Part shown: in pieces, positions 26,640 to 31,429 of the stretch
Layout: every line of letters starts with the position of its first letter
How positions within the stretch are numbered: the first letter of the stretch is position 1
The notes under the pieces: model-generated
The model's database searches: none
What the model was told of the DNA's origin: nothing
The model's input: the letters and a program-made list of their open reading frames with translations, nothing else
Assembly: GCA_050014195.1 (NCBI GenBank)
Contig: JBEKDT010000003.1
Coordinates: 64,001 to 128,000, forward strand
Source: Desulfomonilia bacterium
Lineage (GTDB): Bacteria; Desulfobacterota; Desulfomonilia; UBA1062
Length of the DNA stretch: 64,000 nucleotides
Direction of reading: 5' to 3'
Position numbers and translations under genes: made by a program

Positions 26640-27815
26640 ATGAAGATATTGATCGTTGATCCTATAGGCGGGATCAGTGGGGACATGCTCTTAGGCGGTC
26701 TCGTGCACCTCGGGTGCCCCACCGAATACCTTGAGGAAATCTTCGGCAAGCTTACTATCGAACCGTTTTCCATGCACACGAAAGAGGATTCCATAAACGG
26801 CATCTCCTGCATCGGCCTCAGGTTCGACATACCGGAGTCTCGCGAGGGCAGGACCTATGCCTCTATCCGGGATACTATTCTTCCCGGGCTTCCCGAGGCG
26901 GTCCGGTTCAAGGCGGAAAAGGTCTTCCAGGCACTGGCTCAGGCTGAGTCCGGGGTCCACGGGTGTGCGGTAGAAGATGTTCATTTCCATGAGATCGGGG
27001 CCCTTGACTCCATCCTCGATATCACAGGCATAGCAGCAGCTCTCGATTATCTCGGCGTGGAAACTCTCTATTCTAGGCCCGTTCCGCTCGGCAGCGGTTT
27101 GACGAATTCACTTCACGGAATGATCCCGGTACCAGCACCTGCCACGGTGAAGCTGCTGGAGGGTATCAAGGTGAGGCCCTCTGCCATAGAGGCCGAGCTT
27201 ACTACGCCTACGGGGGCGGCAGTGCTTAAGGCCCTGGCGGAAAGAGGCGAGCCTCCTGAAGTGCTCGTCATCAAATCGGTGGGCTATGGGTGCGGCAGCA
27301 AGAGGTTCGAGAACTGGCCCAACCTCTGCCGTGTCATGCTCTGTGATGCCGATACCACCCTTGATTCAGAGAGCATATTCAAGGTTGAAGCGGATATAGA
27401 TGACATGATGCCGGAGGATGCCGTAGCGGCCCTGGATAGGATTATGGACGCCGGGGCCAGGGACGTGGGCATCAACCCGAGGATCATGAAGCGGGGCAGG
27501 CCCGGCTTTACCATTTCGGCATTATGCGAAGAAGCGGATCTTCAGGATGTGCTTTCTGCATTCCTCATGCATACTTCCACCATCGGCGTGCGGTATCATC
27601 CGATCCGGCGCCTCATCCTGCCAAGGCATCAATACCGGGTAAAAACCAGGTATGGTGAAGTGAGCATCAAAGAGGTGGTTCTGCCTGATGGAACACGCAG
27701 AACCAAGCCTGAATATACTGACCTCTTTGACATTTCATTAAGGACAGGCATCCCGATAACCGAGCTCAGGGATGAGGTGAAAAGGGTGATGCAGGAAAAT
27801 AAGCAGGAGGCATAA
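26640..27815 (+). CDS. larC: nickel pincer cofactor biosynthesis protein LarC (Ni insertase)
   Basis: GISGDMLLG, VHFHEIGALDSILD, HGMIPVPAPAT, ELTTPTGAA, IDDM.PE, MKRGRPG, TSTIGVR, KPEY. Confidence 0.93.
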   Translation: MKILIVDPIGGISGDMLLGGLVHLGCPTEYLEEIFGKLTIEPFSMHTKEDSINGISCIGLRFDIPESREGRTYASIRDTILPGLPEAVRFKAEKVFQALAQAESGVHGCAVEDVHFHEIGALDSILDITGIAAALDYLGVETLYSRPVPLGSGLTNSLHGMIPVPAPATVKLLEGIKVRPSAIEAELTTPTGAAVLKALAERGEPPEVLVIKSVGYGCGSKRFENWPNLCRVMLCDADTTLDSESIFKVEADIDDMMPEDAVAALDRIMDAGARDVGINPRIMKRGRPGFTISALCEEADLQDVLSAFLMHTSTIGVRYHPIRRLILPRHQYRVKTRYGEVSIKEVVLPDGTRRTKPEYTDLFDISLRTGIPITELRDEVKRVMQENKQEA

Positions 27816-27832
27816 CTGTTCCGGGAGGGGCC

Positions 27833-28579
27833 ATGAAGAATCTGCTCGATGCATACAAGAGGGGGGAGCTCAGCGCCGACGAGGTCCAGGAAAGGCTCAT
27901 GCGCATGCTCTACGAGGAAGGGGAAGACTTCCTCCTCGATCTCCACCGATCTCACCGCATCGGCTTTCCCGAAGTAATCTTTGCCGAAGGTAAGACCCTC
28001 GACCAGGTTGTCTCCATTGCCAGGAGCCTGTTTGAGAAGAACGGACAAGTGTTTGTGTCCATCATCGATGAAGAAAAAGAAAACCTCATCAGGCAGCAGT
28101 TTCAACGCGCTGAAGTTTCTAAGTCCGGGAGGCTCCTGCTCATCAAGAGGCATGGCCTTGCTGCCAGGAAAATGCCCGGATGCGCAGGCATCATCACCGC
28201 GGGCACGGCGGATGTCCCGTATGCGCAGGAGAGTGCACTCATCTTGGAGGAACTGGGCTTCGATCTCATCAAGGCCTTTGATGTGGGCGCATCCGGCATG
28301 CACAGGCCGCTTCTCGGCCTTAAAAAGGCAAAGGACGCAGATGTGCTCATCGTTTTTGCCGGCATGGACGGCGTGCTGCCCACACTCATGGCCTCGCTCA
28401 CGGACCTGCCCATCATCGCAGTCCCCACGCCCATAGGGTATGGCCATGGCGGCCTCGGCGAGGCCGCCCTTTCCACCATGCTCCAGTGCTGTGTTCCGGG
28501 GGTCATGGTCATGAACATCGGCAACAGCGTGGGTGCCGCCGCTGCAGCAGCACGAATACTCAAGGCCCTTCAAAAATAG
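27833..28579 (+). CDS. larB: nickel pincer cofactor biosynthesis protein LarB
   Basis: GFPEVIFAEGKT, TAGTADVP, DVGASG, AGMDGVLP, IAVPTPIGYG, MLQCCVPG..NIGN. Confidence 0.93.
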   Translation: MKNLLDAYKRGELSADEVQERLMRMLYEEGEDFLLDLHRSHRIGFPEVIFAEGKTLDQVVSIARSLFEKNGQVFVSIIDEEKENLIRQQFQRAEVSKSGRLLLIKRHGLAARKMPGCAGIITAGTADVPYAQESALILEELGFDLIKAFDVGASGMHRPLLGLKKAKDADVLIVFAGMDGVLPTLMASLTDLPIIAVPTPIGYGHGGLGEAALSTMLQCCVPGVMVMNIGNSVGAAAAAARILKALQK

Positions 28580-28608
28580 ACGGGTGGAGAGTTTCGATTC
28601 ACAGCAAC

Positions 28609-28666
28609 GTAGGAGCGCCTTCAGGCGCGACCCGGTTTAAAAAGTCGCGGCTAAAGCCGCTCCCAC
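28609..28666. repeat. inverted pair of GTAG-type REP-like palindromes
   Basis: GTAGGAGCGCCTTCAGGCGCGA ... TCGCGGCTAAAGCCGCTCCCAC between convergent genes. Confidence 0.7.
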
Positions 28667-28726
28667 ACAAAGCCCCTGGATCTGTCCTCTGAGGAGACCG
28701 CTTTTCTCATCCCCACTTCTGCCCTT

Positions 28727-30025
28727 TTATAACCTGAACGCATTTGTGATATTCGCCTTGGTGCCGTGCAGGTGTGCTTCGAGCAGTAATGCCAGGGATC
28801 TGAGCGGATTTATGGGTACGAGCCGTATGGGCGGGATCTTCATGTGTTTCCCGAGCCCGTCGATGGTCTTTGCCAGGTTGTTGCACCCGGGCGAGACCGT
28901 GACCTTGCGCTTGCCGAGCCTGGCTTTGAGCTCCTGGTACCACTCGGCCATGGCGCAGTCGCCTGCGATATGGACCGGGCCTGTAATGCCCGCCACCTCG
29001 GCAGGGTCGATCCCCTTGCCCATAAGGATGGTGAAGCCGCCCTTTCCGCGGAAGTCCTGGCCGAAGACCTCCAGCACAGCCTCGGTATTCCGCTTGCACC
29101 CTTCCCGGCAGCACAGGGTCTTTCCCCTGATAATCCGCACGCCCTCGGGAAACTTTTCCAGGAGGTCCCAGGAGAACTGCTGCTTACGGCCATCGAAGAG
29201 ATCCCTGTTCTCGATGGTGATCCTCTCGAACTGCGACTCCCCGAACCCGTACTCGGCCGCAAGTTTCAAGTGCTGCACCTCTTCCAGGCCGAAGCCCAGG
29301 AACTTCGCCCCTACCACGTTCACGGCCATGGGGTCGCCCCCGCCTATGAGGACGTGCATCGGCACCACGCTGGCCGATTCCTGACTGAGGGCCGGATAGT
29401 GGCCGAAGTTGGTGGCCTCGATCCCGTCTATGAGGGTGAAGTCCGGCCTGATATTGGCATAGATGTCTGCGAGCTTCTGGTGCAGCTTGAAGTTGTGGTC
29501 CGCGATGCGGCTCTTCTGGTGGACAAGCCCGAACTGGTTCTTGATACCCAGGGTAACCGTGGTCATGGAATGGCTCTTGAGCTTGGGCATGGAAATATAG
29601 AGATTATCGCCCCTCTTCCGGATAAGGTTCTCGTGTATGAAGTCAGGGATGTTGATGAAGGATTCCAGCTTCTGAAGATACAGGGGCATCTCGGCGGTCT
29701 CATCGAGGTATATGGGTATGGCGCCTGTCTCCTCGCACATCCGTTTCATGCCCGTGATCTCGTAGACAAGCCTGGTGAAGTTCCCCTGGGTGCTGTTTTC
29801 CATCACGTAGATGTTCCGGGCTCCATGGGCCTTAAAGTACCTGACTGAGGCCGCCACCACCTCGGGAGACGTATAGACGTGTGGCTTGTAGTCGATACCG
29901 TTGACCTTAATATAGACATCTTTGGAGCGTTTCAGCAGGCTCGTCGCTCCCCCGAAGGCATCGAATAACCCTGAGACTGCCGCATCCAACCCTTGGGCTG
30001 TGTCCTCAAACCTCACACGTGCCAT
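28727..30025 (-). CDS. DUF362 domain protein with Cys-rich C-terminal (Fe-S?) domain
   Basis: VYIKVN, TSPEVV, ISMPKLKSH..TLGIKNQFG, LIDGI, DPMAVN; C-terminal CCREGC, GDC, PGC. Confidence 0.85.
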   Translation of the reverse strand: MARVRFEDTAQGLDAAVSGLFDAFGGATSLLKRSKDVYIKVNGIDYKPHVYTSPEVVAASVRYFKAHGARNIYVMENSTQGNFTRLVYEITGMKRMCEETGAIPIYLDETAEMPLYLQKLESFINIPDFIHENLIRKRGDNLYISMPKLKSHSMTTVTLGIKNQFGLVHQKSRIADHNFKLHQKLADIYANIRPDFTLIDGIEATNFGHYPALSQESASVVPMHVLIGGGDPMAVNVVGAKFLGFGLEEVQHLKLAAEYGFGESQFERITIENRDLFDGRKQQFSWDLLEKFPEGVRIIRGKTLCCREGCKRNTEAVLEVFGQDFRGKGGFTILMGKGIDPAEVAGITGPVHIAGDCAMAEWYQELKARLGKRKVTVSPGCNNLAKTIDGLGKHMKIPPIRLVPINPLRSLALLLEAHLHGTKANITNAFRL

Positions 30026-30120
30026 GGCTTTCCTCCTCGCTCATCATCTAACTGGTTGTGCCCTAATTCCTCGGGTGAGTCAACATTGCGAAGAGGGGTA
30101 ATATTTGTACCTTGTATTTC

Positions 30121-31290
30121 TCAAATCATCTCAAACATCGCCTCCACCCGTGTGCGGATTTGCCGTACATCGCCGTCGGAGTAGTCGGTTTCGATCTTCA
30201 GGAATGGGAGGTTATGCATAGTTTTTACGTGCTCGCCGACCTTGTAAGATTCGACATTGTAGCTGTGGCAGGCATGCAGGATTACGTCGATGACCGCATC
30301 GGGCTTGAAGCGATCGATGAGCCTGTCGAGCTGATCGAGACGCCTGGTGTTCGGCGACATGCAGGAACAGGGGAGCTTCAGGTATCTCTCGGCCAGTGCT
30401 GCGATGGGGTCTAACGCGTCTTCCTCAATGGTATCCAGGAATGCCTTCATGCCGGTACAATTATCAATTGCCACGATTACGCCCCCGGCCTCCTCAATGA
30501 CCTTGAATGCCTTGGTGGCATCTCCACCCACAGGACATCCGGTGATGAGGACACGCGGAGCACCATCTTTCCCTATGCCCTTTCCATTCTTCTTGCGATG
30601 CTCCAGGGTCTCGATACAACGTGTAAGGAGAGGCTTGATGTCGGTGAAGCTTGCCGGCTGTGCAAGGAACGTCAGGTCATACATATCCTGCCAGGAGAGG
30701 AGCGATGGTGTGCAGGCTGCATAGTCAAAAATCCTATCCATCATGGAGTTCTTGCGGTTCGTGTCCTTGATGGCGGCCTCGATGGCCCTGTCATGTATCT
30801 TCTTATTGAAGGTATTCTCCAGGAAGCCTTTGAGCTTGCCGATCACGCCCGCCCAGTTCTGCCGTGCCTCAGCCTCATCCGGCATCTGCGGGAGATCCAT
30901 GACAAACATGGGTTTCTTATCAGCAATGAGCTCGAACATCTTTTTCTTCCCGTCGCAGGTCGTCTCGGCCACCACGGCATCCGACAATCCGAAGAACGGG
31001 CAGGTATCGGTTATGATATACCCGTAACTCGACTTGATGAGCGGGCATAGATTACCGGGCAGAACCGCCTCGGCAGCCTCGATGGTGCCGTTTGAGAAGG
31101 CGCAGAGAACCGCGGGCACGGCATCCATGGCGCGGATAAGCTCAAAGGGTGCATAACCGCAGTAGGCCCCCACTACATTCTTGCCCTGCTCCCTCTTGGA
31201 TTGAACATACGCAAGCGCCCGCTTGCTCGGTGCACCCACGTACTGATCATTCATGAGCGGTTCTAATTGCTCCATACCCTTTTCCGACAT
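30121..31290 (-). CDS. 2-hydroxyacyl-CoA dehydratase family, double-cubane cluster (DCCP)-type reductase
   Basis: YCGYAPFELI, NLCPLIKSSYG, CPFF, ETTCDGKKKMFE, NCTG, PCSCMSPN, ACHSYNVE, IETDYS, TRVEA. Confidence 0.88.
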   Translation of the reverse strand: MSEKGMEQLEPLMNDQYVGAPSKRALAYVQSKREQGKNVVGAYCGYAPFELIRAMDAVPAVLCAFSNGTIEAAEAVLPGNLCPLIKSSYGYIITDTCPFFGLSDAVVAETTCDGKKKMFELIADKKPMFVMDLPQMPDEAEARQNWAGVIGKLKGFLENTFNKKIHDRAIEAAIKDTNRKNSMMDRIFDYAACTPSLLSWQDMYDLTFLAQPASFTDIKPLLTRCIETLEHRKKNGKGIGKDGAPRVLITGCPVGGDATKAFKVIEEAGGVIVAIDNCTGMKAFLDTIEEDALDPIAALAERYLKLPCSCMSPNTRRLDQLDRLIDRFKPDAVIDVILHACHSYNVESYKVGEHVKTMHNLPFLKIETDYSDGDVRQIRTRVEAMFEMI

Positions 31291-31429
31291 TGTGCCACCC
31301 CCCTATCGAAGTCTTAGCGCATCATATGCAACACAAGGTGAGAGATCAAATAGGGAAAAGTTATCAAACGTGCAGAGCCATTCCTTAAACGTATGGCTTC
31401 TGTGCGGCAATTAAGGTGTGCCAGGCCGC

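Follow-up and report, generated by a model that had tools for sequence, protein, structure and literature searches.

We analysed a 64-kb stretch of the genome of a Desulfomonilia bacterium (assembly GCA_050014195.1, 4.2 Mb in 29 contigs, 100% complete; contig JBEKDT010000003.1, positions 64,001 to 128,000), referred to below as the window. Here larC and larB, two genes for the synthesis of the nickel-pincer nucleotide (NPN), converge on a co-oriented pair of genes coding for a double-cubane-cluster reductase (DCCP) and a protein of the DUF362 family (Table 1). This DUF362 protein, a candidate NPN-binding relative of the nickel-pincer enzyme LarA, is our subject. Each of the four genes sits where an earlier reading of the bare sequence (the initial annotation) had placed it, and their coordinates and strands confirm the convergent layout that it described. 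LarC is matched by PF01969 (E 3.5e-115) and by the NCBIfam models LarC1 (TIGR00299, 190 bits, cut-off 90) and LarC2 (NF052512, 121 bits, cut-off 50). PF04015 matches the DUF362 protein at 118.1 bits (cut-off 24), its profile positions 1-199 of 200 covering residues 37-240. An acyl-CoA-dehydrogenase-like gene lies divergent from larC, and pdxR and pdxST are found on the opposite side.

The DCCP gene lies upstream of the DUF362 gene with a gap of 95 bp, and in the window the two are probably co-transcribed. A promoter-like site precedes the DCCP gene and a terminator-like hairpin follows the DUF362 gene, the counts of such pattern matches being not above those in shuffled controls. The absence of larA and larE that the initial annotation had noted holds for the 64-kb window only: the genome-wide search that it had proposed located larE on contig 5 (TIGR00268, 294 bits) and, on contig 7, a homologue of LarA (Lar_N, E 9e-50; a 422-aa open reading frame, ORF). 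The same genome carries five further DUF362 paralogues, six in all. In two of them (L004:1330-2454 and L005:1393-2415, both on the minus strand) a two-cluster ferredoxin domain is inserted within the DUF362 domain, directly after the conserved second histidine, and in another (L002) a two-cluster ferredoxin domain is fused at the C-terminus.

Table 1. Features of the larCB-DUF362 region (positions in the 64-kb window)
Feature	Position	Strand	Description
larC	26640-27815	+	391 aa from ATG at 26640; nickel-inserting cyclometallase of NPN synthesis
larB	27833-28579	+	248 aa; nicotinic acid adenine dinucleotide (NaAD) carboxylase/hydrolase of NPN synthesis; NF033503 218 bits (cut-off 175); PF00731
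larB/DUF362 tail-to-tail spacer	28580-28726		147 bp between stop codons
Terminator-like hairpin	28647-28660	-	3' of DUF362 stop codon; pattern match only
DUF362 gene	28727-30025	-	432 aa, without signal peptide; PF04015 match
Codons C306, C310, C357, C381	28883-29110	-	C-domain; probable iron-sulfur (Fe-S) or metal site, metal inferred
Codons H152...K162...H177	29495-29572	-	Counterparts of LarA H174/K184 and probable counterpart of H200, by alignment
DCCP gene	30121-31290	-	389 aa; NF040772 457.7 bits (cut-off 350); PF06050 E 7e-105
Promoter-like site	31321-31349	-	Upstream of DCCP gene; pattern match only

Fold and predicted cofactor site of the DUF362 protein

An AlphaFold model of the DUF362 protein, built on 20 orthologues, has a pLDDT (predicted local distance difference test) of 90.2 and a pTM (predicted template-modelling score) of 0.90, and consists of an N-domain (about residues 1-262) and a C-domain (263-432). 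When the model was compared with the PDB using Foldseek, the top 16 listed rows (ranks 1-12 and 14-16) were all LarA structures or LarA-fold homologues, with E values of 1.5e-6 to 1e-4 and a probability of 1.00 for most and 0.98 for 4nar; unrelated folds begin at E 1e-3. VIA-align placed 12 LarA-family entries at Z 13.4-15.7 (root-mean-square deviation 2.9-3.8 A over 210-233 residues), with the next fold at Z 5.2. In the model, then, the N-domain has the cofactor-binding fold of the LarA N-domain. The fold relation between DUF362 and DUF2088 that the initial annotation had named is borne out by both searches and by the membership of the two families in Pfam clan CL0471 (PMC11770544). No solved DUF362 structure appeared in our sequence or fold searches.

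Only fold comparison and weak cross-matches between profiles reveal the relation to LarA. The Lar_N model (PF09861/DUF2088) gives no match to the window protein up to E 10 and weakly matches DUF362 paralogues and operon-linked DUF362 proteins (E 0.0035-0.087), and a profile of the 20 orthologues found no LarA among all PDB sequences. The best match of this profile, KDO8P synthase at E 0.03, was discarded as noise. With the window protein alone as query, 3044 representative clusters were matched; no longer relative with a fused domain came up in a search for such proteins, a negative of little weight.

LarA of L. plantarum uses H174 as acid/base, K184 as the tether of NPN, and H200 as a nickel ligand. 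The string KSHSMTTVTLGIKNQFGLVHQKSRIADH is present in the DUF362 translation, and the motif H152-x9-K162-x14-H177 read from it in the initial annotation is correctly numbered. Several alignments place these residues on the LarA site. The LarA of the same genome, aligned to 5huq_A, carries H121/H185/K195/H211 at the positions of L. plantarum H108/H174/K184/H200, and in an hhalign comparison of 47 diverse DUF362 proteins with 13 LarA homologues, H185 and K195 of that LarA fall opposite H152 and K162 (at a probability of only 9%). A LarA hidden Markov model aligns the contig-5 paralogue L005 without gaps over 40 residues, including an identical H-x9-K-x15-H (E 7e-4), and in a MAFFT alignment of 16 DUF362 proteins H152, K162 and H177 of the window protein share the triad columns of L005, with a one-residue gap. 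The Pfam Lar_N and DUF362 models also cross-match on the same stretch, with coordinates that agree with this placement of H177. As judged from these alignments, H152 and K162 are therefore the homologues of LarA H174 and K184, and H177 is probably that of H200. All three residues are invariant in the 20 orthologues, and they are kept in 42 (H152), 43 (K162) and 43 (H177) of the 47 diverse members; the triad is thus common to the whole DUF362 family and does not mark out this protein.

Four cysteines of the C-domain are also conserved among the 47 members: C306 in 43, C310 in 45, C357 in 43 and C381 in 38, with histidine in six more. In the model each of them directly follows a beta-strand of a beta-alpha-beta domain, and together they form a probable Fe-S or metal site. 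Among the cysteine motifs named in the initial annotation, these four therefore stand as family features, and C305, the first cysteine of CCREGC, does not (6 of 47). Profile comparison of the C-domain with that of LarA detected no relation (probability 0.6%), and in a protein atlas the domain matched only unnamed or DUF362 fragment clusters.

In comparison with the LarA/DUF2088 racemases and epimerases, the DUF362 protein is alike in its N-domain fold (Z about 15) and clan (PMC11770544), in its His-x9-Lys pair and probably in the second histidine of the triad, in its build of two domains and about 430 aa, and in the occurrence of family genes beside larBCE. It differs in having no Lar_N match and none of the H108-type histidine, ribose aspartate and phosphate Arg/Lys of LarA, in its C-domain, for which no relation to that of LarA was detected and which bears four conserved cysteines, and in that DUF362 members are tied to Fe-S proteins or domains, either NapH/NapG-like polyferredoxins or ferredoxin domains that are inserted or fused.

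DUF362 and lar genes across genomes

We surveyed 28 loci related to that of the window in species-representative genomes, with 8-kb flanks. In 11 of them, all with a DUF362 identity of at least 71%, larB and/or larC lie within 8 kb of the DUF362 gene; the other 17 comprise six with less than 1 kb of downstream DNA and 11 informative negatives. Eight of the 11 positive loci also have larE, in a larC-larB-larE operon whose end comes as close to the DUF362 stop codon as 8 bp (L020), 17 bp (L016), 25 bp (L021) and 60 bp (L022). A ZitB-like cation-diffusion-facilitator metal-efflux gene is found divergently upstream of DUF362 in three loci (L020:2925-3875, L021:6888-7826 and L029:6659-7630, all on the minus strand), so that in these loci the DUF362 gene has a metal exporter on one side and larCBE on the other. 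Orthologues further removed from the window protein, at 50-56% identity (six loci), reside in operons with an FGGY kinase and a flavoenzyme. Three of these (L026, L028, L034) have a glycerol-3-phosphate-dehydrogenase-like flavoenzyme, the FGGY kinase and then DUF362, and three (L036-L038) have a GlcD-like FAD oxidase, DUF362 and then the FGGY kinase, all of these neighbours scoring under the NCBIfam cut-offs.

The neighbourhood signal is stronger for DUF362 subfamilies other than that of the window. Of 89 larC loci (about ±10 kb) from 88 Verrucomicrobiota genomes, 11 contain a DUF362 gene, always on the strand of larC, as compared to about one expected by chance (a rough estimate without phylogenetic correction); LarA is present in none of the 89. 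Five of the 11 are contiguous operons, among them one with DUF362, a NapH/NapG-like polyferredoxin, larB, larC, cbiM, cbiQ, an ABC ATPase and larE (L060), and one with two DUF362 genes, larB, larC and larE (L062). The LarC proteins of these 11 loci are 31-62% identical to one another, except for one pair at 78%, and the DUF362 proteins belong to at least two subfamilies, most with signal peptides of the twin-arginine translocation (Tat) type or others. In a set of 80 larC loci from many phyla, DUF362 occurs in the flanks of four and LarA in four; two of the four DUF362 cases are Bacteroidales, where the gene and larC are divergent and 65-130 bp apart. The signal is weaker in Desulfobacterota, where, apart from two larC loci considered below, one genome carries a DUF362 gene 2.3 kb upstream of larE-larB.

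Co-occurrence was counted in 351 Desulfobacterota, 151 Verrucomicrobiota and 101 Cyanobacteriota genomes (Table 2), LarA in Desulfobacterota being counted at E 1e-10 or better. The Desulfobacterota sample contains LarC in 311 genomes, DUF362 in 272 and LarA in 199, and LarC is tied more closely to DUF362 (odds ratio 10) than to LarA (5.4). In Verrucomicrobiota the odds ratio of LarA and LarC is 1.4-1.9 and not significant. That of DUF362 and LarC is 8.2 within the genomes bearing pyruvate:ferredoxin oxidoreductase, a lifestyle marker, as against 8.0 overall; with 135 of 151 genomes bearing it, this enzyme is too common for a strong control. Cyanobacteriota contain LarC in 60 genomes, DUF362 in 45 and Lar_N in 3. 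Among the cyanobacterial genomes of at least 4 Mb with a listed size, 30 of the 32 that have LarC also have DUF362, and none of the 9 that lack LarC does. A clear LarA match is missing from 58 of the 60 LarC-bearing genomes, and 40 of those 58 have DUF362.

Table 2. Genomes with and without DUF362, by presence of LarC
Phylum	DUF362 present, LarC+/LarC-	DUF362 absent, LarC+/LarC-	Odds ratio
Desulfobacterota	259/13	52/27	10
Verrucomicrobiota	76/22	16/37	8.0
Cyanobacteriota	42/3	18/38	30

The initial annotation had named two computational observations against which its idea could fail, namely that the triad does not map to the LarA active site and that lar genes and DUF362 are not associated across genomes. 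The idea comes through both, since H152 and K162 (and, less clearly, H177) align with their LarA counterparts in sequence and since the association is found, in gene neighbourhoods as well as in co-occurrence (odds ratios 8-30).

The same genomes hold several peculiarities of the lar genes themselves. Strong LarA homologues are present in genomes where no LarC was found: two Desulfobacterota genomes (G240 and G149, 99-100% complete), where LarB and LarE were also not found, and seven Verrucomicrobiota genomes (G374, G398, G416, G467, G472, G488, G489). Whether the cofactor is salvaged or supplied by another route is a question that these orphan LarA genes raise. In small cyanobacterial genomes (1.8-2.2 Mb; G512, G521, G524, G527, G530, G533, G563, G566, G575, G590 and G596) only LarC model positions 1 to about 235-250 are matched, by ORFs of about 250 aa, some with in-frame stops; LarC may have been split or have decayed in these genomes. 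About 30 Verrucomicrobiota genomes contain ORFs of about 380-720 aa (mostly 420-480) that match only Lar_N positions of about 45-195 (E 1e-10 to 1e-22; for example G375:C36:13774-14271 and G453:C4:96518-97015); within the LarA/DUF362 clan they may make up a divergent third branch.

Candidate functions of the DUF362 protein

From the fold, the triad alignments, the neighbourhoods and the co-occurrence shown above we infer a scheme for cofactor binding, chemistry, metal centre and substrate class. We put the chances at about even that the window protein is a nickel-pincer-binding paralogue within the LarA superfamily, equipped with a four-cysteine (Cys4) centre, and we rate NPN binding as somewhat likelier for the subfamilies linked to lar operons. 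The protein, a cytoplasmic two-domain member of the family that is sister to LarA, would bind NPN made by LarB, LarC and LarE through its conserved lysine and histidine, and NPN or a close variant would be the ligand of the window protein and of much of the DUF362 family. The bound cofactor would serve hydride transfer on a small hydroxylated substrate, and the four C-domain cysteines would hold an Fe-S or metal centre linking the site to electron carriers. As the 50-56% orthologues share operons with an FGGY kinase and a flavoenzyme in six loci, the substrate may be, for example, a polyol, sugar or hydroxy acid.

A number of observations weigh against NPN binding. At the locus itself, the lar and DUF362 genes are convergent rather than co-operonic, a caveat rightly entered in the initial annotation, and because the genome carries a LarA homologue and larE, NPN synthesis already has a conventional client here, so that larCB need no new one. 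Adjacency to lar genes is lost in one relative at 86% identity (L017) and absent from all 11 informative loci at 67% DUF362 identity or less, and pdxRST, an esterase gene and NMO are syntenic in the same stretch. Outside the window lineage, none of the seven genomes with both locations listed has an orthologue beside lar, and among 40 Desulfobacterota larC loci DUF362 is near two, both of one genus, and LarA near none.

The comparison with LarA itself also has its gaps. The hhalign probability is low whether the whole protein (9.3%), the N-domain (14%) or the C-domain (0.6%) is compared, and the program opens a gap before the second histidine, leaving H177 unpaired with the nickel-binding histidine of LarA. 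Three residues described as universal in LarA are not conserved: the H108-type catalytic histidine, kept in all LarA homologues (PMC12611868), aligns with Q80, which is variable among the 47 family members, and at the residues equivalent to L. plantarum D72, which binds the cofactor ribose, and R75 (Arg/Lys), which binds its phosphate (PMC12611868), hhalign puts N42/G43 and Y46/K47, in a region of low confidence. DUF362 proteins have a conserved K40-x-N42 and T52 in this region.

The co-occurrence data likewise contain exceptions. Pyruvate:ferredoxin oxidoreductase itself tracks LarC (odds ratio 4), and the significance of all the associations is overstated because the tests treat related genomes as independent. 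DUF362 is present and LarC is not in Bacteroides thetaiotaomicron and in 22 of the 98 DUF362-bearing Verrucomicrobiota genomes; ten Verrucomicrobiota genomes have a triad-bearing DUF362 with neither LarC nor LarA. Of two nearly or fully complete genomes, G240 (99%) has an orthologue and an orphan LarA with no larB, larC or larE found, and G296 (100%) has a weak DUF362 match with no lar genes found. The DUF362 proteins of LarC-less genomes retain the triad.

The triad-bearing proteins of genomes without LarC, the broad synteny of the region, the loss of adjacency with falling identity and the missing LarA site residues speak for the main alternative. On this view the protein has the LarA fold but works as an enzyme with some different cofactor or with a simple metal site, its triad being ancestral and repurposed and its position beside larCB inherited synteny. 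We regard this as possible, if on the unlikely side. Against it, lar genes have members of at least three DUF362 subfamilies as neighbours in four phyla, several of these within lar operons; the odds ratios for DUF362 (8-30) are higher than those for LarA; and the Verrucomicrobiota ratio holds within genomes that bear pyruvate:ferredoxin oxidoreductase. Moreover, 9 of the 13 Desulfobacterota and 12 of the 22 Verrucomicrobiota genomes with DUF362 and no LarC keep LarA, so that a missing LarC does not separate DUF362 from LarA. Since LarA shows the same kind of orphans, the DUF362 orphans weaken the NPN hypothesis and do not refute it.

A second alternative, less likely than the first and in our view improbable, is that DUF362 proteins are accessories of NPN supply, whether as a carrier, a store, a delivery or repair factor, or in an Fe-S-dependent step. 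It would fit the presence of the cofactor-binding half of LarA without the H108-type catalytic histidine, and the several Verrucomicrobiota and Bacteroidales DUF362 genes that lie in or adjoin an operon of larB-larC-larE and nickel-transporter genes with no substrate-specific gene. However, a published description of NPN synthesis involves LarB, LarE and LarC only (PMC13524815), and LarC occurs without DUF362 in 52 of 311 Desulfobacterota, 16 of 92 Verrucomicrobiota and 18 of 60 Cyanobacteriota genomes. Many family members are apparently Tat-exported, and the orthologues of the window protein share operons of catabolic appearance with a kinase and a flavin dehydrogenase.

The proposal of the initial annotation that the DUF362 protein carries out redox or isomerase chemistry as the dedicated partner of the neighbouring DCCP reductase has little left in its favour and is very improbable: for all the closeness of the two genes and the promoter- and terminator-like sites around them, which are no commoner than in shuffled sequence, the pairing recurs in just one of the 28 related loci (L015), and the window has no activator ATPase of the BcrAD/BadFG type, the usual companion of DCCP. 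We accordingly rejected DCCP as a conserved partner. In L014, whose DUF362 protein is 94% identical, pdxR is directly followed by DUF362 with no reductase gene between, which points to a recent gain or loss of the DCCP gene.

Precedents and meaning for nickel-pincer enzymes

NphT, an aldo-keto-reductase homologue with a TIM barrel, has been proven experimentally to be nickel-pincer-dependent (Nat Chem 2026, PMC13524815). As with DUF362 here, it was nominated by genes beside larB, larC and larE where LarA is missing and by a well-placed lysine and histidine; the two differ in that the NphT barrel is unrelated to LarA and its case proven, whereas DUF362 is a LarA-fold relative and a candidate only. 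A 405-aa aldo-keto-reductase homologue (PF00248, E 7e-29) is encoded in one Verrucomicrobiota locus between a DUF362-polyferredoxin pair and larC-larB (L064:9725-10942, minus strand), and may belong to the nickel-pincer aldo-keto-reductase class.

PMC13524815 names no users of the nickel pincer other than LarA homologues, an aldo-keto-reductase family and an ornithine cyclodeaminase; neither its main text nor any of 12 searched supplementary files, with five files outside the search, mentions DUF362. The homology of DUF362 and LarA is already in print, with DUF362 used as an outgroup (PMC11770544), and we found no proposal of DUF362 as a nickel-pincer user in the literature covered, which excluded subscription journals. 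Within the family, the window protein matches the cyanobacterial Npun_F2552 family (NF052623) weakly, at 40 bits against a cut-off of 500, and other DUF362 forms are Tat-exported single-domain proteins or carry ferredoxin inserts, whereas the window subfamily adds the Cys4 C-domain.

More tentatively, and with somewhat less than even confidence, we suggest that DUF362 as a whole is a large second branch of nickel-pincer enzymes in which hydride chemistry is coupled to Fe-S carriers. Such a branch may include single-copy cyanobacterial forms, Tat-exported periplasmic forms with NapH/NapG-like polyferredoxins, forms with ferredoxin inserts and Cys4 two-domain forms such as that of the window. 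Since methods for loading and detecting the cofactor have been published (PMC13524815, PMC11796402), the idea can be tested directly.

These results bear on an acknowledged question, namely which proteins use NPN in genomes that lack LarA (PMC11796402): about 15% of genomes make the cofactor without LarA, "including many cyanobacteria" (PMC11796402). DUF362 is a strong candidate for the missing class of nickel-pincer enzymes. If this holds, a family of thousands of members would gain a cofactor and a testable chemistry, and nickel biochemistry would extend to Fe-S-linked and periplasmic redox enzymes. A second branch of this kind would explain the many genomes that make the cofactor without LarA, and would couple the hydride chemistry of NPN to Fe-S centres, which no known nickel-pincer enzyme does.

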